Origin: Methanobacteriota archaeon
GTDB lineage: Archaea; Thermoplasmatota; E2; DHVEG-1
Assembly: GCA_963769885.1 (NCBI GenBank)
Contig: CAVYNH010000001.1
Coordinates: 13,234-77,233 of the forward strand
Direction of reading: 5' to 3'
Length of the DNA stretch: 64,000 nt
Part shown: in pieces, positions 1 through 15,500 of the stretch
Numbering within the stretch: the stretch's first letter is position 1
Layout: each line of letters opens with the position of its first letter
Notes under the pieces: generated by a model
Databases searched by the model: none
What the model was told of the DNA's origin: nothing
Seen by the model: only the letters and a program-made list of their open reading frames with translations
Program-made: the position numbers and the translations under genes

Positions 1-30
1 TGTAGTGGGAAATCAGTAGTGGGAAATTTA
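1..30 (+). repeat. Left terminal inverted repeat (2 x ~14-bp GTAGTGGGAAAT unit)
   Basis: Read directly; inverted match to 5322-5364. Confidence 0.85.
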
Positions 31-35
31 GATGG

Positions 36-545
36 TTATGTTATAACTGATATGATGAAAGGACAGACATCCTTAATTATCCAATGAACTGTTGTTATAA
101 TCATTAATGTTAACCAGATTATGGTAAATGTTAATGGTACAAAAAATGATACAATTAAACCAGAACTTATTTTTGTTAAGAATTTTCTACAACCTAAAGC
201 TTCATCAATTTCGTTATATGTTCCTTTCTTAAAATTTTTATTTGAAGTAAAACAACCATTACAATCTGTGAATATTTTAGTCTCTAATTTTCTTCCTTCA
301 TTTTCTGCTATAAGAATATGGGCATATTTTCTATGCAAAATAAAGAACCAGAAAATACTTATTATAAAACCAGTAAAACAAACTATTACTGCTGCAATAT
401 TTATTTTATTTATTATTTGAGAATAGCCTGCGAATAATAAGGATATGACAATAATATAAAAATGAAATGAGTCCCAATATCCTTTATCCCATCTTTCCCA
501 AATTGAAATAATTGAATTGTATTGTCTTATTTCTTTTTCACACAT
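36..545 (-). CDS. Small multi-pass membrane protein, RipA/Rip1-like
   Basis: 169 aa with 3 hydrophobic helices. The pattern Y...W..F..V.S.L / G.IIS..W......Y........R.LE..I resembles RipA-family octameric membrane proteins (recalled similarity, not searched). Confidence 0.55.
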   Translation of the reverse strand: MCEKEIRQYNSIISIWERWDKGYWDSFHFYIIVISLLFAGYSQIINKINIAAVIVCFTGFIISIFWFFILHRKYAHILIAENEGRKLETKIFTDCNGCFTSNKNFKKGTYNEIDEALGCRKFLTKISSGLIVSFFVPLTFTIIWLTLMIITTVHWIIKDVCPFIISVIT

Positions 546-742
546 AAATATGTCCTCTATCTCTATTCTTCTGAATGTATGTAATTTTTTATTTTTTAAA
601 TATTTTGTGTATTTTAGGTTTGCAAACTATTTTAAAAACAAATGACATTGATGTTCTTGCCATCCCTATCATTAAGCTCATATGTTTCGCCAAAAAACTT
701 ATGTAGTTTTTTCGATAGGGATGGTAAAAAATTTAATCTGTT

Positions 743-2042
743 TTAATCTCCATCAGTGTAGTAACCAAGAATTTCAATGAAATCTTTTTTGGAGGAGTTG
801 ATGAATTTATCCTGTATCCTGGCTATGCCGTTGTCATTTATTGCGTCCCTGACTTCTTTTACTTCTTGGCATCTACTGTAGAACAAATGTTCCTTACTCC
901 ATGCACTCCATAGATGCGGGTCTATCTTGTTAAAAAATGCGCCACCATATACTTCATTAATCTTTGAACATCGGGGCAACCGCATTTTAACGGTTTATTT
1001 TTAATCTTATTTGCTTTTACCAATTCCATTCGTTTTCTGTCATAATATGATCTGAATTTTGAAGATTTACCGCTACCGCCATAATCATTAATGTAACCAT
1101 TTAATGGTTCGATGAAACCGTCAAATCCAGTGGATATACATGGTATGGCATATGCATCCGCATCTATCAAGAAAGTAAATTTATTGTTAAATTCAGCCGC
1201 TTCCTGAATAGACTTGGAAATGTTCCGAGGTTTCTTCTTACATCGGTATCATTCAGAGGGAAGTATTTTATTTTGATGAAAATGATTTTTACGTTCTCAT
1301 ATTCTCCGTCTACGTCCATTAAGAAATCTGTGATTTTTTTAAGTTGATCTAAATTCCGTAATGCTGAATAATTGAGGTTAAAATAGAAAGATGGTTCAAG
1401 ACCAAAGGTATCCGCTATAGTGAAAGCGGATTTTTTATTTACATCAATTGCTATATCTATTAGAGGGGAGTTTTCACCCTCGATAAATGGTACGAATGGT
1501 ACTATTGCATCAGGTTGATATTTATTTTGTTCTCTTACATTCCAGTTGATGACTGTAGTAGTATCTCCTGAGTTATACAGTTGTTGCCACATCTTAGTAT
1601 AATTCGCATATGTTGATTTGGTTAAAAAATCAGAAATTTTTTGTGGGAGTGACGGCAGATTTTTATATTGCGTTCTTTTTTGCTTGTTGTTTAGATAAAC
1701 ATATTCCGTGTTTGGATCAATGAAAACAGGGAGGATGCCTTTTAAGGTTTTAAAATCATAGGAAATCATTGGGATTAAACGTGTTTGTTTAGGATTGAAT
1801 ATTGTTTTCTCTCTGTTCAATGATGATACATTTAATATATCAAAAAATATTCCTTGGAAATAGTCATTTATTTTCTTTTCATCAATAATTATGTCAAGTT
1901 CTTTTGATGTTCTTATCTTAGGGATATAACAGGGTGTTTTGATTGTTTTATTGTTTAAATTGATCGTTGTAATTCTTGCGTTGTTTACTTTCTTTTCAGG
2001 ATAGATCATCACTTGGGTTGATCTTTTTACTTTTTCTTTCAT
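743..2042 (-). pseudogene. TGT (queuine/archaeosine tRNA-ribosyltransferase, DpdA)-fold protein of ~433 aa, split by 2 frameshifts
   Basis: ORFs 1167-2042, 922-1170 and 743-985 join by adding one base near 1217 and one C in the C4 run near 975, restoring CGCPRC. N-terminal ARITTINLNNKTIKTPCYIP resembles the TGT start; the C-terminus has a CxCxxC...H zinc site. The frameshifts may be sequencing errors. Confidence 0.6.
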
Positions 2043-2529
2043 ATGCTATCGACCTCTTTTTTAATATTTTTTAAATGTAATATTAGTTCATCGAGTTGGT
2101 TTGCATTTAACATCAATCCTCCGACAATGGTAAAAATATTGTATTCATCTCTTGTTTTTTCTTGGATATACACAAATTTACCAAAAGGGTTTTCGATCAA
2201 TTGAAAGTTATAATATTTTTCACCTATTTTTACATCTTTTATTAAAGTTGGATGGGCTACTTTTCCATTAGGATAATAGAGGAAATTTCTTTGACTAAAC
2301 TGTCGCCTATACAACTCTCTGATCGCTGTAAGGTAATCTAAAGTTGAGATGCGGTTCTGCGATCAATCCCTGCAACATCAGATACTTGAGGTAAACTAAT
2401 TCCTTGTGGATTATCTTTAACAACTTTTAATATGATTGAACAAGCAAATCTTTTTCTATCTTCGGGAGACATTTTTTTTAATTCCTCTTTTGAAAATCCG
2501 ATTTGACTTCTATTTATTGCGTCATCCAT
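2039..2529 (-). pseudogene. Winged-helix protein fused to a PUR/PC4-like domain (~163 aa), one frameshift near 2343
   Basis: MDDAINR...GISLPQVSDVAGIDRRTASQ continues as LDYLTAIRELYRR... after a +1 correction. The C-terminal KYYNFQLIENPFGKFVYIQE...LMLNANQLDELI resembles a PUR repeat. The stop overlaps the next start (ATGA). Confidence 0.55.
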
Positions 2530-2688
2530 TGTTTTTCTCCTTGTAATTTTATATACAACATTAAGATGCACATACCTTGTGCATAGTTATGTTGTACAGT
2601 TGATGTTGCACATAAACGGTTATTATATATATAAAGATAACTGATAGCTTTATATACTGACAATGTATTATAAAACTTGGCGAAATAT

Positions 2689-3847
2689 ATGGGCAACAAA
2701 ATAGATATTAAAGAAATGGTTAACGCAGAAAAGCTAGAGGCATGACACTTTTAGAACAAGGAATAGAACCAACCGAGATTAATCCGCATACGTGGATAGT
2801 GCCAAGTCAGACAGGAAATGGAACATATCAAGTTGATGTCCAGATGCGGTATTGGCATTGTACATGTCCAGATTTTGAACTAAAAGTATTGTAAACACAT
2901 CAATGCGGTTAAGATATGGAAGAACCTGAAAGAGAAATTTGAACAAATACATCTCAAAGTGAAACAGAAAATTACGTTAACAGATATTGATGTTGATTGC
3001 TGTAAGTTTTGTCATTCAACAGAAGTGACAAAATATGGGATGAAAAATAGTAAACAAGTCTATTTCTGTAAGACCTGTAATCGAAGATTTGTCAATAATG
3101 TTGACTTCGAGAATATGAAATATAACCCTAAGATAATCGCATTAACGCTTGATCTGTATTTCAAAGGAATAAGTCTCAGGAAAATAAGCCAACATCTAAA
3201 ACAATTCTATGAACTGAATATAAGCCATAAATCAGTTTACAACTGGATAGAAAAATATGTAGGGATAATGAATGAATACGTCAATGAAATACAACCTGAT
3301 ATTGGGGAAGTATGGCATACTGACGAAATGATGATTAAAATAGATGGCTCATGGAGACCTCTGGAATGTCATGGACGAACGTACACGGTTTCAACTCGCT
3401 TCTGTGGTATCAAAAGAACGATATGTTAAAGATGCACGTATGGTATTTCAGAAGGCAAAAAAGAACTGCGGTGGACGCAAGCCGAAGTTCATGGTTACCG
3501 ATGGTCTACCCGCATATAGGGATGCGGTGAACAAGGAGTTTAAAACTAATACTGATGAAACAGAACACCTATGGAATGTGGGGTTACAGCACCATCCAAA
3601 TAACAACCACATTGAAAGATTACATGGGACAATACGGGATCGTGAAAAAACATTTAGAGGGTTAAAGATAGAAAGTACCCCTATTATTGATGGGAACAGG
3701 ATTTACTACAATTTCATAAAACCACATGAAAATCTTGATGGTAAAACTCCGAGTGAGGAATCGGGAATAATCATTGAAGGAAATAATAAATGGCTTACTC
3801 TTATGAAAAAATCAATTCAGTACCAAAAGGCTAAAAATCAGAATTGA
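2689..3847 (+). pseudogene. SWIM zinc finger + zinc ribbon + DDE (IS6/IS240-like) transposase, 3 frameshifts
   Basis: Reassembled reading: SWIM CTCPDF...CKH, CKFC..CKTC ribbon, HTH, WHTDE, VTDG, NNHIERLHGTIRDR, YYNFIKPH. Frameshifts near 2727, 2890 and 3358. Confidence 0.85.
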
Positions 3848-3878
3848 AAAGTTATATAATTCAAATGGAGATTTAAAA

Positions 3879-5321
3879 ATGGAAAACATGCAAATAAAAA
3901 CCGATACTATTTACTGCGGAGATTGCCTTGATGTATTGAGGCGATTTCCAGAAGGATTTGTAAATTTAATTTATCTTGATCCACCATTTTCAAGTGGCAG
4001 GATTTATAATATAGTGTTTGGCACTAATAGCGAAAAAAAAGCCTTTGATGATCGATGGAAAGGTGGTATTCATCATTATATTGAATATATGAGGGAAAGA
4101 CTCGAACTCTGCCATCGTGTTTTGGACAGTAAAGGGTCGATTTATTTACATTGCGATAGTCATGCAAGTCATTATCTCAAAATAGTGATGGATGATATTT
4201 TTGGTTATAATAATTTTAAGAATGAAATAATTTGGAAAAGAAAAGATGCTCAAAGTTTCACCAATAAATATGGAGCTATGCATGATACGATTTTATTTTA
4301 TACAAAATCAAATGAGTACACGTTTAACAAAGCATTAGAAGAGTACATTCCACTTAGCGAAGAAACCGCAGATACTTGGTATAAATATGAAGAAATTGCA
4401 TCGAAAAATATTATTAATCGTCTTGGGAAAAAAATTGAAAAAGGACATGTAAGACGATACAATAAAGGTGATATAAGCGCACCTGGGGATAGGCAAGGTA
4501 CGGCAGCGCATTATAAATGGAACGGAAAATATCCACCAAAGGGGAGACATTGGGAATATACGGTTGAGGTGATGGGGAGATTGGAAAGAGAAAAACGTCT
4601 TGCTTATTCTAAGAATGGAAGGGTTTATGAAAAGCGATATTTAGATGAAACAAAGGGGACACCTCCTCAAGACATTTGGACTGACATTTCTATGTTGCGT
4701 GGAATGGGTAAACATAGTGAAAAAAGTGAATGGATGGAATACCCAACTCAAAAACCAAAACGTTTACTTGAAAGAATAATACGGATTTCCTCAAATGAAA
4801 ATGACATTGTACTTGATCCTTTCTGTGGCTGTGGTACGACTATCGTTGCAGCACATTATTTGAGGAGAAAATGGATTGGTATTGATATTTCACCTACTGC
4901 ATGTAATGTCATAAAAAATCGTATGGGAAATGTAAAAAAAATGGGATTGTTTGTCGTGAAAAACATTCCTATAATTGGACTCCCAAAGACAGAAGATGAT
5001 CTTAGAAAATTGCATCCTTTCGAGTTTGAAAACTGGGTATGTGATGTTCTTTTCGCTATTCAGACGAAGAAAGCAAAAGACATGGGTATTGATGGATATA
5101 CTATTGATGGAACAGTTCTCCAAGCAAAACAAATGGATAAAGTAGGAAGACCCATAGTAGATAATTTTGAGGCATCAATGAAGCGAGCTAAAACCAATAA
5201 AGGCATAGTTATTGCTTTTAGTTTTACTAAAGATGCTTTTGAAGAGGTTGCAAGAATAAAAAGCGAGAATATAGATATTACATTAAGATCAGTAAAAGAA
5301 TTATTAGAAATGGGTTTCTAA
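3879..5321 (+). CDS. N6A/N4C DNA methyltransferase fused to a C-terminal Mrr-like endonuclease domain
   Basis: DPPF catalytic motif, YPTQKP, DPFCGCGTT SAM motif. C-terminus FEFENWV..DMGIDG..LQAKQ..VGRP..GIVIAFSFTKDA is Mrr-like. Confidence 0.9.
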   Translation: MENMQIKTDTIYCGDCLDVLRRFPEGFVNLIYLDPPFSSGRIYNIVFGTNSEKKAFDDRWKGGIHHYIEYMRERLELCHRVLDSKGSIYLHCDSHASHYLKIVMDDIFGYNNFKNEIIWKRKDAQSFTNKYGAMHDTILFYTKSNEYTFNKALEEYIPLSEETADTWYKYEEIASKNIINRLGKKIEKGHVRRYNKGDISAPGDRQGTAAHYKWNGKYPPKGRHWEYTVEVMGRLEREKRLAYSKNGRVYEKRYLDETKGTPPQDIWTDISMLRGMGKHSEKSEWMEYPTQKPKRLLERIIRISSNENDIVLDPFCGCGTTIVAAHYLRRKWIGIDISPTACNVIKNRMGNVKKMGLFVVKNIPIIGLPKTEDDLRKLHPFEFENWVCDVLFAIQTKKAKDMGIDGYTIDGTVLQAKQMDKVGRPIVDNFEASMKRAKTNKGIVIAFSFTKDAFEEVARIKSENIDITLRSVKELLEMGF

Positions 5322-5364
5322 TCTGATACCACTACAGATTTTCCACTACTAAATTTCCACTACA
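5322..5364 (-). repeat. Right terminal inverted repeat (3 x 14-bp unit)
   Basis: CCACTAC cores at 14-bp spacing, ending ...CCACTACA. Confidence 0.85.
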
Positions 5365-5389
5365 GTATTACACAGCACCCTGTTCAGAT

Positions 5390-5450
5390 AGGTTTATATA
5401 GAAGTGTCCATATGCTGGGAATGCTTTTAACCTACTTATAAAGGAGGCAT
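5390..5450 (+). promoter_or_regulatory. Putative TATA box and Shine-Dalgarno of the thermosome gene
   Basis: TTTATATA near 5393; AGGAGG shortly before the ATG at 5459. Confidence 0.45.
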
Positions 5451-5458
5451 AGAACAGT

Positions 5459-7114
5459 ATGATGGCTGGAGGACAGACACCCATAATCATCCTTAAAGAA
5501 GGCACGAAACGCGAAAAAGGCAAAGGCGCCCAACTCAACAACATCATGGCAGCCCGCGCAATCTCCGACGCCGTGAAATCCACGCTCGGACCCAAAGGCA
5601 TGGACAAGATGCTCGTCGACTCCATGGGCGACGTCGTCATCACCAACGACGGCGCCACCATCCTCAAAGAAATCGACGTCGAACACCCCGCCGCAAAAAT
5701 GATCGTCGAAGTCGCCAAAGCCCAAGACGAACAATGCGGCGACGGCACCACCACCGCCGTGATCCTCACCGGAGAACTCCTTCGCAACGCCGGCGAGCTC
5801 ATCGAACAGAACATCCATCCCACCGTCATCACGGGCGGATACCAGAAGGCGGCCATAAAGGCGGTCGAAATCCTCAACAAGATGGCGATCCCGATCAAGC
5901 CCAACGACAAAAAAACGCTGAAGAACATCGCCATGACCTCCATGGCCAGCAAGGGAGCCAGCTCCGCAAAAGCAATCCTCTCCGACGTCGTCGTCGACGC
6001 GGTCACCAGCGTCGCCGAGAAAATCGATGGACGCACCGAAGTCGACATGGACAACATCCAGATCCAGAAGAAACAGGGCGGTAGCATCAACGATACCAAG
6101 ATCATCAAGGGCATCATCCTCGACAAGGAACGCGTCCACGAAGGCATGCCCAAGCACGTCCACAACGCCAAGATCGCCTTGGTCAACGCCGCTTTAGAGA
6201 TTAAGAAGACCGAGGTCGACGCCCGCATCCAGATCCAGGACCCCAGCCAACTCCAGGCCTTCCTCGATGAGGAAGAGACCATGCTGAAGAAGATGGTTGA
6301 AAAAATCAAGAAGAGCGGGGCCAACGTCCTCGTCTGCCAGAAGGGCATCGATGACATCGCCCAGCACTTCCTCGCCAAAGATGGCATCTACGCGGTCCGG
6401 CGCGCCAAGAAATCCGACATGGACAAGCTCGCCAAGGCCACCGGCGCAAAGATCGTCGCCAACCTCGACAACCTCAGCGTCAAGGACCTCGGACAGGCTG
6501 GCGCCGTCGAAGAACAGAAGATCGGCGACGACCGCATGACCTTTGTTGTCGACTGCAAGAACCCCAAGGCCGTCAGCATCCTCATCCGCGGCAGCACCGA
6601 ACACATCGTCGACGAGCTTGACCGCGGCATGCACGACGCCCTCTTCGTCGTCAAAGTCGCCCTCGAGGACGGGAAGATGACCGCCGGCGGCGGCAGCGCA
6701 GCCACCGAGATCGCCATGCAGCTGCGCGAGTACGCCACCACTGTCGGCGGCCGCGAGCAGATGGCGATCGAGGCGTTCGCCAACGCGGTCGAAGTCGTCC
6801 CCAAGACCCTGGCGGAGAACGCGGGTCTTGACCCCATCGATATGATGATCAACGTCCGCCGCGCCCACAAGAAGGGCAACAAGTACGCTGGCATCGACGT
6901 CTTCAACGGCAAGATCACCGACATGATTGACAACAACGTCGTCGAGCCGCTGCGCGTCAGCGTCCAGGAAGTCACGGCATCCACCGAAGCCGCCAACATG
7001 ATCCTGCGCATCGACGACATCATCGCCTCCAAGAGCGGTGGCCCAGCGCCCGGCGGCCCCGGCGGCATGCCAGGCGGCCCCGGCGGTATGGGCGGTGACA
7101 TGGACGAGTACTAA
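5459..7114 (+). CDS. ths: Thermosome (group II chaperonin) subunit
   Basis: TLGPKGMDKML, ITNDGATIL, GDGTTT motifs; GGM-rich tail. Confidence 0.98.
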   Translation: MMAGGQTPIIILKEGTKREKGKGAQLNNIMAARAISDAVKSTLGPKGMDKMLVDSMGDVVITNDGATILKEIDVEHPAAKMIVEVAKAQDEQCGDGTTTAVILTGELLRNAGELIEQNIHPTVITGGYQKAAIKAVEILNKMAIPIKPNDKKTLKNIAMTSMASKGASSAKAILSDVVVDAVTSVAEKIDGRTEVDMDNIQIQKKQGGSINDTKIIKGIILDKERVHEGMPKHVHNAKIALVNAALEIKKTEVDARIQIQDPSQLQAFLDEEETMLKKMVEKIKKSGANVLVCQKGIDDIAQHFLAKDGIYAVRRAKKSDMDKLAKATGAKIVANLDNLSVKDLGQAGAVEEQKIGDDRMTFVVDCKNPKAVSILIRGSTEHIVDELDRGMHDALFVVKVALEDGKMTAGGGSAATEIAMQLREYATTVGGREQMAIEAFANAVEVVPKTLAENAGLDPIDMMINVRRAHKKGNKYAGIDVFNGKITDMIDNNVVEPLRVSVQEVTASTEAANMILRIDDIIASKSGGPAPGGPGGMPGGPGGMGGDMDEY

Positions 7115-12544: not shown

Positions 12545-15500
12545 TTAGCGCTTCCGCCGGCGAAGCACCACGGCGATGATGACGATGACGAGGACCGCGA
12601 TAATCCCGATGATCGCCAGCACCATCGTCTGGGAGAAGAACGAGGCCTGCTGCCGGACGTTGGGATGGTCCGATGCGCCGAATGGCGCGTGACCCGCGAC
12701 GGAAAACCCTTCTTGCGGCGCATAGATCAAGGGTTCGACGTCGCCTGGCTCCCAGTGATTCAGGGTGCTGAACGTGGTCCCGGGTACCCAGGTGCGCAGG
12801 TTGGGGTCGCCATAGAGGCAGACATTCTCCTCAAGGTCCCACCACCATACCGGCGGGTCGGAGATGTACTGGATGCCGACTTTCTTGATGCCCGCCTCGT
12901 AGATCTGGCCCATGGTCATGCCGAGGGCGATGCCGCGGGGCACGGAGTTCTGCCAGACGCCGGAATACCACGAGGTCGCCCAGGGATCCATGATTTGGAC
13001 CACCGACCCATGCCGCATAAGGGAGATGTGGAGGTATTTGCCGGCGGGTAGGCAAGCGACACTGCTGATGCTGACCGAGTGAATGTTTCCGAGCGAATCA
13101 TCAACATTACTTCCATTGTAATAGGCGGTTCCCATGCGGGTGGCAAGCAGTGAGATGACAATGCCATCGTAATAATCCTGGGTGTCTTGGAACCATTTTG
13201 GGGTGATGAGGCGTAGGATCGGCAGGCTGGCGATGTTACCCAGGATATCTCGGAGAGGGTGTTTGGCGAGCGCCAGATCCAAACCTGTTTTGATGAATCC
13301 GATGCGGGGATCCGGATTCCCAAGCATGGTGGCGATGAGGCCGTGGACCTGCATGGTCATGGTGTCCGGCTCCGTGGTGGATCCCATGAGCCATTCGTAG
13401 CCCCGCCAGGGGTTGACCTCCTTGGTTTCTGCAGCGAACGGGAACGTCTTTTTGGCGTCAGGGTTCTGACCGGTGGGGTCCCAGAACATGAGGACGCCGC
13501 CGTCGCGTGGTCCGCCGTGGGTGTTGATGAGCCAGAGGAGGATGCCTTGGTTGAGGTTGTTCATGTTGGCGTCGAAGTTGGTGGAGTAGACAGGGGAGTA
13601 CCCGCCCTGGTCGAGGTAAAAGGTCTGGACCTCGGCGGCGCTCATATCAGGCAGGTAAGCGCCGGTTTGTCCGTTGACCGCTAGCATGTCCCCGGAGTCG
13701 ATAGGGTTGAAGGATGCGGTCTGGCCAGGGATGTCCCCGTCGGCGCATTTGTACGTGAAGCCCCAGTAATTGCTCGCCCGGCTGTTGAATTTTTCTTCGT
13801 AGCAGATGAGGGTGTTCAGGGCGGGGTAGTGCAGGGTGACGTCCCCGGAGGGTCTGATGATTTTTAATCCGAGTTTTCCGCGCCAGGGGAACTGGCGTTT
13901 GCTGATGCTACCGTTGGTGAGGGTGACGCCGTCAGGGTTTTTAATACCAGGGTTTTGGAAGACGATCTGGGGGTAGAAGACGGTTTTTGCGAGCCAGACT
14001 GACAAGTCGGTTGGAGACCCGAAGAAGCGGCCGGGCTCGGCTTTGCCGACGAACATTCGGTCCCAGGAGAAGCCGATGTTGTATTGTCCGCCGACGGTGA
14101 TGAGGATTTCGTCGCCTTGTTTGTCATAGTCGAGTTGTTTGAGGTAGGAGTAGACGCGGGTTCCGGTGAGGTACATCTCGGCGACCGCGGGTTCTTTGCT
14201 GATGCCGTCGGAGTGACGTCGCCAGAGTTCGTTGTGGTAGATGACGGCGGAGGAGAACTGGGGGTGGTTTTCGACGATGAGGACGGGGCTGCCGTGTTGG
14301 GCGGCGATATAGGCGGCTGGTCCGACAGCGATTTCACCCTCTATGGGGGCTCCGGGGTGGAAGGTGGCGTTGTCCATGGTCCAGTAGTTCACGGTGGAGA
14401 AGATGACGTCGTTTTGGCCTGAGAGGGATCGGATGGTGGTGTTGATGTCGTTGAAGGTGGTGAGGTAGTGGGTGTCGGTGATGCCGTCGGTGAGGGTGGT
14501 CTTGGTGGTGCTCTTCATTGTGTTGTGGAGGTCGACGACGTAGAGGTGTGTCGTGCCGAGGGTGGCGAGGGTGCTGGTCGTGGTCTTCGGGGTGGATGCA
14601 GTGGAGGTGTAGAGGAGCGGGGCGTTGAGGAGGGAGGCGAGGACGGCGGCGTTGGCGGCGGAGTCGAGGCTGTCGCCGTAGCTGCGGGTCATGTTTTGCT
14701 TCCAGGAATAGTCGATGGTGAAGGGGGTGTCGCTGGTGAGGGGTGTTTCGGTGTAGACGCAGAGGCTGTAGTGTTCGCCGGGGAGGCATTCGCCGAGGCC
14801 GGTGAGGTGCATGTCGGTGCTGGTGCCGTCGGGGAGGGGGATGGCGCAGGCTCCCTCGGGTGTGGGGCAGGTGGTGGAGACGCCGGCTTCGCGGGTGGAG
14901 AGGATTTCTTCGCCGCTGGGGCCGATGAGGCTGAAGCCGAGGTCGACGCTGGGGTCGTTCCAGTGGAGGGTGATGGTGGCGTCTTGGCATCCGTAGGGGG
15001 GGAGGTCGGGGATGGTGAGGGTGGTGCCGGGGTACATGTTGACGTCGATTTGGTAGGTGACTTTGTGGAGGTTTTGGAGGACTTCGAGGAGTCTGCCGTA
15101 GCGGCCGAAGTGGAGGAAGAGGAGGTTGCGGGTTTTTTCGATGGGGGTGTTTTGGAAGTTGGTTGGGGTTTGGTCGGAGAGGGTCTTGGTGGGGGCGTCG
15201 GTGAGGGCGACGCTCCATTTGCCGGGGTTGTAGACGTAGGTGGAGACGTAGTCTTTGTCCATGCCTTCCATGGCGTTCCAGGCGGCGACGATGCCGGCCA
15301 TCATCCATTGGCCGTCTTTTTCGCAGTAGACTTGGAGGTCGCGGTCGCCGGCGGGGATGCTCATGTTGATGATGCCTTGGAAGCCGCCGCGTCCGATGTT
15401 GATGTAGACGCTGGGGTACCAGGAGCGGATGTAGAGCATTTTGTAGCCGTCGGGGACGGTGAATTCGTTGTAGATGGGGTAGATCTCGTTGGTCTGGGGG

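Follow-up and report, generated by a model that had tools for sequence, protein, structure and literature searches.

We have analyzed a stretch of 64,000 nucleotides (hereafter the window) from an uncultured Methanobacteriota archaeon of the Thermoplasmatota, corresponding to C1:13234-77233, where C1 is contig CAVYNH010000001.1 of assembly GCA_963769885.1 (2.09 Mb, 7 contigs); 13.2 kb of contig precede window base 1. The beginning of this stretch is very probably the body of a genuine mobile element, an IS6-related transposon that carries passenger genes (a transporter insertion sequence, or 'transporter IS'), has two-part ends and docks next to promoters. What is most interesting about it is that it docks before strong promoters with single-base precision. 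Reading the contig beyond the window, the element spans C1:13219-18612 (window -14 to 5379, 5,394 bp). Its left tip lies outside the window, whose base 1 falls inside the left inverted repeat. An earlier note made from the window sequence had described a compact transposon with a single transposase and passenger genes, and our analysis supports this description. The note had also considered both ends as present and bounded by TGT and ACA. This does not hold, since the window starts inside the left end and the inverted repeat runs further out, to GG tips flanked by copies of an 8-mer.

The borders are sharp. The G+C content of the element block is 27-40%, against 55-65% for the adjoining chaperone genes. 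TGT is found at window positions 1-3 and ACA at 5362-5364, TGT being part of the spacer between a tip box and the first of several repeated units. The inverted repeat extends 14 nt past these trinucleotides on each side, with the tip box GGTTCTGTGTAA on the left (C1:13219-13230) and GGTGCTGTGTAA on the right (5368-5379). A perfect 8-bp target duplication, CTGTTCAG, directly adjoins both tips. Its left copy is located at C1:13211-13218 (tip box and duplication fall 14-22 nt before window base 1) and its right copy at 5380-5387. The left border reads out as ...CTGTTCAG / GGTTCTGTGTAATAC / TGTAGTGGG... and the right border, in reverse complement, as ...CTGAACAG / GGTGCTGTGTAATAC / TGTAGTGGA.... 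Only 5 nt (ATAGG) past the duplication starts the TATA box TTTATATA of the thermosome gene (5393-5400, plus strand), with the ATG at 5459, 80 bp from the true right tip at 5379. The gap of ~95 bp given by the earlier note is therefore not right.

Target position upstream of TATA boxes

Copies with the same kind of ends and different cargo, which the earlier note had proposed to look for, were found in the same genome and in related metagenome-assembled genomes (MAGs). The two further members of the own genome (C4:264436-271650 and C6:779104-783583) have intact transposases and are flanked by their own perfect 8-bp direct repeats, CACCCCAA in C4 and CCTATTGG in C6. The size of the three own-genome elements is 4.5-7.2 kb. 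From Thermoplasmatota MAGs we collected 20 related loci, with transposases 66-80% identical, and one more came from a Nitrosopumilaceae archaeon (36%). At least seven bounded elements with perfect 8-bp duplications, between 2.8 and 7.2 kb long, were present in the related Thermoplasmatota MAGs. In all ten bounded elements (three from the own genome and seven from relatives) the perfect duplications were found outside the GG tips. The length of the duplication, another point that the note had left to be checked, is thus 8 bp and not 5 bp.

Nine of these ten elements have, on one side, a TATA box (TTTATATA or TTTAAATA) separated from the duplication by exactly 5 nt, i.e., the 8-bp target occupies positions -13 to -6 from the first T of the archaeal TATA box. 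As a reference value, TTTAWAWA occurs in this genome at a frequency of 1.4e-4 per position. The targets in the own genome are the promoters of the thermosome gene, of the rpl3-rpl4-rpl23 operon and of the 16S rRNA (identified with Rfam), with the same 5-nt spacing at all three. The transposase is oriented towards the promoter in seven elements and away from it in three. A scan with the tip box only, over 61 family genomes, gave 59 matches versus 26 for the reversed control. Twelve evaluable tips had genuine subterminal units. Eight of them are separated by this same distance from a TATA-like box, which in six cases belongs to the conserved thermosome promoter TTTATATAGAAGTG.

The thermosome promoter itself is conserved across 40 relatives, and an element is located beside the thermosome gene in 6 of 21 related loci. 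A family tip lies 13 nt upstream of the thermosome TATA box in G000, G001, G008, G014, G017 and G023. Overall, the promoter in the relatives is either empty or occupied, at the same -14 position, by different elements, which are found in either orientation. Specifically, G001, which belongs to the same genus, lacks the window element and carries another, decayed one, whose 8-mer is TGAGTCAG. The site is empty in G004, G007, G012 and G024, in which a host gene ends ~55 nt upstream and the repeat is absent. Empty thermosome promoters without the repeat were what the earlier note had suggested to look for as a test of its transposon, and on this point the note is supported.

From this pattern we consider it somewhat more likely than not that the promoter position is actively recognized, rather than reached by homing to resident ends or left over by selection. 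How this would be done is more tentative. With somewhat less than even confidence, we propose that the transposase may read the archaeal transcription start machinery (the DNA bent by TBP/TFB or the proteins, perhaps via its SWIM finger), leading to fixed insertion at the busiest promoters: chaperonin, ribosomal protein and rRNA. One DDE transposase (with SWIM finger, zinc ribbon, helix-turn-helix (HTH) and IS6-type core) would join the ends to a target whose two strands are cut 8 bp apart, producing the duplication CTGTTCAG. Because the target (-13 to -6) is upstream of the TATA box, insertion would leave the promoter intact. Later arrivals would hit the same spot and push the older elements outward. 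Transposition could be either replicative or cut-and-paste.

The alternative that best survives is that newcomers home to the ends of resident members, comparable to the insertion of IS26 beside an existing copy, the link with promoters being an accident of the first insertion. Just to the left of the left duplication there is indeed the end of another family member (...ACACAGAACC; read inward, GGTTCTGTGTAACCGTGGTTTGGGCAG...). In locus L009, as in the C1 and C4 elements, such an end is separated from the left tip by exactly 8 bp. Besides, in L008 two complete elements and a third end are all separated by the same 8-mer beside the TATA box. However, on the side away from the 16S promoter the C6 element borders on ordinary GC-rich host DNA, L005, L010, L012 and L018 are also devoid of a family tip on the far side, and the same 5-nt spacing appears at three different promoters of one genome. 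Homing as the whole explanation seems to us unlikely. The stacking is most simply accounted for if elements inserted repeatedly at one target defined by the promoter, the 8-mer being duplicated with every arrival.

Much less plausible is an essentially random insertion with survival only just upstream of promoters, where nothing is disrupted. Intergenic insertions are expected to persist and gene-breaking ones to be purged, but selection of this kind cannot yield a base-exact spacing (8 + 5 nt) in nine of ten elements and at three unrelated promoters, and many other harmless intergenic positions were available.

There are, nevertheless, several points that weigh against active recognition of promoters by a functional transposon. 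The left duplication abuts the end of another member in two of the three own-genome elements, for which reason the choice of site could be due in part to homing to ends already present. In L010 only a weak TATA-like box is found at the expected spot. Many of the docked examples come from related genomes and share a single orthologous promoter, and are thus not fully independent. The mechanism is read from insertion footprints. The type of repeated unit at the ends, which roughly follows the transposase tree (see below), has one exception, the C6 element. Finally, the window transposase is interrupted, as is, at different places, its copy in the other arm of a fold-back at the contig start (described below); the window copy could be inactive, or else there may be errors in the consensus sequence.

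The older neighbour to the left of the window element ('Y', C1 ~12600-13210) is at most ~0.7 kb long. We searched for a second end of 'Y' and of its counterpart in C4, and for a third copy of the 8-mer, and found none, indicating that both neighbours are truncated. We also examined Alba as possible cargo of the older element and rejected it, Alba being the ancestral divergent neighbour of the thermosome gene in the relative L035. In five relatives without a family tip at the thermosome promoter, a conserved 17-mer, ACTTTCGGAACTACTGC, abuts the 8-mer at -14 from the TATA box (L026:3222, L027:423, L028:1414, L033:1406 and L035:3225). The same 17-mer was seen at L012:39-55 and in the flanks of the L004 element. 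In L028 the next open frame codes for a transposase of the DDE_Tnp_1 type. One possibility is that the 17-mer is an end belonging to another transposon family with the same landing spot, and a second is that it is a regulatory site.

Two-part ends and an IS6-type transposase

Each end consists of a tip box and a set of subterminal units. The 12-nt tip box GGTTCTGTGTAA is common to the window element and the low-GC elements of C4 and C6, and is kept across the family. The tandem 14-bp units described by the earlier note, GTAGTGG(G/A)AA, are real. GTAGTGGRAA occurs four times in the 64-kb window, always at the element ends (2-11 and 16-25 on the plus strand, 5340-5349 and 5354-5363 on the minus strand), while shuffled sequences gave a mean of 0.19 occurrences and none of 100 shuffles reached four. 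Genome-wide, 12 of 16 occurrences fall in element ends. The inner left inverted repeat (1-42, plus strand) comprises the spacer TAC/TGT, the two exact units spaced 14 bp and a degenerate third (~29-39). The right one (5323-5379, minus strand) has a third unit, GTAGTGGTAT, at 5326-5335, and the spacer before its tip box. The arms 1-27 and 5338-5364 are 85% complementary, and the two ends of the element agree at 45 positions over the first 60 nt.

The subterminal unit varies by element (GTAGTGG, GTTGGG, GTKTGGG, GTGGTG or GTGTGGC) and its type roughly tracks the transposase clades, which fits units acting as enzyme-specific binding sites. The tip box would be the likely cleavage site, and the three subterminal units (GTAGTGGRAA here) would probably be bound by the N-terminal zinc and HTH domains of the transposase, an assignment of domains to parts of the end that we infer from the sequences. 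At the contig end L008:1-55 (the same locus as G017:C17), the outermost end of the three-element stack meets the shared 8-mer with TGTAGTGGGAAATTTAGG... and has neither the GG tip box nor the spacer. It is the sole case seen with TGT as the last base, and may be a truncated end or a variant terminus.

The transposase gene (2677-3847, plus strand, TTG start) codes for an IS6-type protein with SWIM, zinc ribbon, HTH and DDE regions. Intact relatives have 392-394 amino acids (aa), the intact own-genome copies 394 aa in C4 and 392 aa in C6. Profile searches were run on the intact C4 sister (L002:4816-6000, 394 aa), to which the window copy is ~80% identical in the C-terminal part and 63% in the N-terminal part. 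This sister matched Pfam DDE_Tnp_IS240 (9.1e-21) and, at its N terminus, a SWIM finger (2.5e-7), and scored 134.2 bits with the NCBIfam model transpos_IS6 (cut-off 125, E 4.8e-39), bearing out the IS6-like SWIM transposase that the note had recognized. An IS1/IS1595-type zinc ribbon covers residues 114-145. The archaeal ISC774-type model gave only 19.5 bits, so that by sequence the enzyme is nearer to the bacterial-type and long zinc-finger IS6 groups of Harmer & Hall (PMC6807381).

The hallmarks of IS6 elements are GG tips, an internal cTGTt motif and an 8-bp duplication (Varani et al., 2021, PMC7986276). The tips of the window element (GGTTCTGTGTAA, GGTGCTGTGTAA) begin with GG and contain the CTGT motif. 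The GG tips, the 8-bp duplication and the transposase score above the IS6 cut-off together place the element among the IS6-type and not the Tn7/Mu-like transposons. It resembles IS6/IS26, and especially the long zinc-finger clades (ISCpe7 and ISTet2 groups) and ISDsp3, in the DDE core, the GG and CTGT tips, the 8-bp duplication, the single transposase gene and, as in the long clades, a zinc-binding N-terminal extension. The reviews of the family (PMC7986276; PMC6807381) describe elements of 0.7-1.7 kb, with 15-20-bp repeats and a sole passenger-carrying member, ISDsp3. In contrast, the window element has 5,394 bp and four passenger genes where a typical member has only the transposase, an extra SWIM finger, and two-part ends of ~55 bp with three subterminal units spaced 14 bp instead of short simple repeats. 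Its target is, besides, fixed relative to TATA boxes. Harmer & Hall (2019, PMC6807381) question whether the long and archaeal groups belong to the IS6 family at all.

The earlier note had proposed instead that an IS6-like enzyme drives a distinct family whose termini are TGT...ACA in the style of Tn7/Mu and whose binding sites are iterated. TGT and ACA do directly precede the first unit, repeated subterminal sites are also a feature of the ends of Tn7 and Mu, and one end in L008 (L008:1-47) meets the shared 8-mer directly with TGTAGTGGGAAA, with no tip box. On the other hand, both the inverted repeat and the conservation across the family continue 14 nt past TGT, to the GG tips, which are the ones flanked by duplications of 8 bp (not 5) in the ten bounded elements, and no TnsA/TnsB/TnsC or MuA/MuB-like domains were found in any open frame of the element. 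Tn7 and Mu have TG/CA termini, 5-bp duplications and TnsABC(D/E) or MuA/MuB, compared with GG/CC, 8 bp and one IS6-type protein here. Such termini are contradicted by the flanks, and we consider them very improbable. The contrast that the note had drawn with the GG-starting ends of IS6 disappears, the element itself having GG ends. What is left is an analogy, namely several repeated sites per end (three spaced units here, with a putative role in binding) and, in the case of Tn7, the use of a fixed, harmless docking site (attTn7).

The possibility that the low-GC block is the remnant of an integrated plasmid or virus, with incidental repeats, can practically be discarded: low-GC DNA does run ~0.7 kb further to the left and the contig start is structurally odd (fold-back), but there is no integrase, replication gene or virion gene, and the sharp borders, inverted repeats and target duplication are repeated in sister elements of the same architecture.

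Passenger genes and the fold-back at the contig start

The genes diverge from a central promoter region (2572-2676) and the outermost stop codons (36-38 and 5319-5321) abut the repeats, as the earlier note had indicated. The transposase TATA box, TTTATATA, is at 2649-2656 and an opposed TATA-like box at ~2629-2636 on the minus strand. In an alignment of 22 upstream regions of related transposases the back-to-back TATA layout was conserved, around a short palindrome in most relatives, and no hairpin small RNA was found in the window copy. In L004, L006-L008, L010, L011, L015-L017 and L019 the back-to-back TATA boxes surround a short palindrome, e.g. GTGGCACCAC, located between the transposase and a conserved small divergent gene; the window element differs in sequence there. 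From their sequence, the palindrome and paired TATA boxes look like an operator for a small regulator.

To the right, the transposase is followed by a gene for a 480-aa protein (3879-5321, plus strand) that joins an N4/N6 DNA methyltransferase (PF01555, 7.7e-50) to a C-terminal Mrr-type nuclease domain (PF04471, 2.3e-8). To the left, on the minus strand, there are three genes. The outermost codes for a 169-aa membrane protein of the Pfam family 8xMP (36-545; PF24838, E 5.5e-10). The second (743-2042) codes for a protein with the fold of tRNA-guanine transglycosylases (TGT enzymes) and appears in the window as three frames, by 1-nt differences at ~972 and ~1217; the other arm of the fold-back has it as an intact frame of 433 aa (L001:4174-5475). 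The third, a passenger or regulator gene at 2039-2571, has a best Pfam E of 0.03 (not significant) and a frameshift at ~2342 in the window; in the other arm it is intact (177 aa, L001:3644-4177) and overlaps the TGT-fold gene by 4 nt.

The earlier note had spoken of defence-type cargo. The methylase-Mrr fusion agrees with this, but the window element has no recognizable restriction enzyme and its large passenger is a TGT fold. As PADLOC gave no match for the TGT-fold, 177-aa or membrane proteins, the defence character comes down to the fusion. The sister elements carry other genes. In C4 we found a 941-aa restriction-methylase of the Eco57I/MmeI type, a PIN protein and several uncharacterized proteins, and in C6 an uncharacterized 303-aa protein and a small membrane protein. 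The C6 element (L053, G000:C6:779104-785477) is 4.5 kb long and is located 13 nt upstream of a TATA box ~400 nt before the 16S rRNA gene, where the C6 contig ends. One family element, in L012 (contig CAZQSR010000113.1), lies beside an archaeal thermosome-type promoter although this contig is binned as an Ignavibacteriaceae bacterium, which probably reflects a binning error rather than transfer into bacteria.

The family of the 433-aa protein is rare, with 83 representatives among 1.8 billion proteins in an exhaustive representative search, and a protein atlas contained only unnamed clusters for the protein. The AlphaFold model of the protein (pLDDT 89) matched with Foldseek the archaeosine TGT enzyme 1iq8 (E 2.4e-11, TM 0.64), and the family profile matched the same protein at 2.6e-11. 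On the basis of this model we are confident that the passenger has a TGT fold. Residues D109, D308 and H386 are at least 90% conserved in the family and the consensus contains a CxCxxC motif. Judged from the sequence, these may resemble the catalytic and zinc pattern of TGT enzymes. Some relatives of these enzymes that act on DNA, DpdA, put 7-deazaguanines into DNA (PMC6884629, PMC10164549). By analogy a DpdA-like role would be a lead, not a result, because the Pfam and NCBIfam TGT scores are below the cut-offs. A gene of ~165 aa overlaps and precedes a ~430-aa TGT-fold gene on all five other contigs (including L085-L088), and no methylase was found near the pair in the one long contig that carries it. 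The two genes therefore form a module of their own and, judging from the modelled fold, might represent a DpdA-like system for base exchange that has not been described before.

The state of the window genes has to be read together with the structure of the contig start. C1:1-9649 is an inverted copy of C1:9800-19446, with 98.9% identity and 15 gaps, centred at ~C1:9725. This fold-back takes up the first 19.4 kb of the contig (window -13233 to 6213), its centre coinciding with the 5' end of a gene for an SBBP/PKD surface protein. It must be either a true palindrome or an artefact of the assembly. We rejected the inverted copy (C1:850-6217) as a second insertion or part of a composite transposon, the homology spanning both flanks over 9.65 kb up to the contig start. 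The window arm preserves the methylase and has breaks in the TGT-fold gene, in the 177-aa gene and in the transposase, the last showing gaps of 5 nt (at 2888) and 2 nt (at 3356) when compared with the other arm. The other arm preserves the two-gene module and has breaks in the methylase and, at different positions, in the transposase. Since each arm breaks different genes, the frameshifts of the window are doubtful and the 'broken' state of its genes is not trustworthy. Most of the ~150 differing alignment columns are in the transposase segment (window 2726-3800), the only one in which the arms differ by 9%, and the substitutions by codon position were 22, 12 and 44, favouring the third. The differences look like two real alleles, or a mixed consensus of a multi-copy gene, rather than random error.

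Comparison with other systems and implications

Ty3 and Ty1 of yeast and Tf1 of fission yeast are retroelements whose integrases, tethered by known protein contacts, insert beside promoters. The family described here would share with them an insertion point fixed next to promoters to which the basal transcription machinery binds, with a host gene that keeps working. It differs in being a DNA transposon in an archaeon, for which a tether is hypothetical. The targeted insertion of IS26 and the accretion of integron-like arrays are alike in that newcomers appear beside older elements and passenger genes gather at one locus. Here, in contrast, the neighbours are different elements bounded by the same 8-bp target, with no shared IS copy and no site-specific recombinase.

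In a literature search that did not cover most subscription journals, we found no paper describing the family, and nothing relevant on SWIM-bearing IS6 transposases or on promoter or TATA targeting by archaeal transposons. A survey of thaumarchaeal mobile elements reported passenger-carrying DNA transposons as undetected in archaea (2019, PMC6563490). Our analysis indicates that archaea do have compact single-enzyme cargo transposons, moving restriction-modification and other DNA-modification genes. For annotation the corrected boundaries matter, as a scan for TGT/ACA would miss the true ends. The fixed landing before TATA boxes offers a clean case, open to testing, in which the choice of target is linked to the archaeal promoter, and an enzyme that places several kb at a predictable and harmless site near a promoter could be developed into a tool for the genetics of archaea. 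The docking also explains the pile-up of accessory genes upstream of housekeeping genes in these genomes. If the transcription start machinery is what the transposase reads, this would be an archaeal DNA-transposon counterpart of Ty3/Ty1 targeting, and promoters would be landing pads for stacks of passenger genes, including those for DNA modification and defence.

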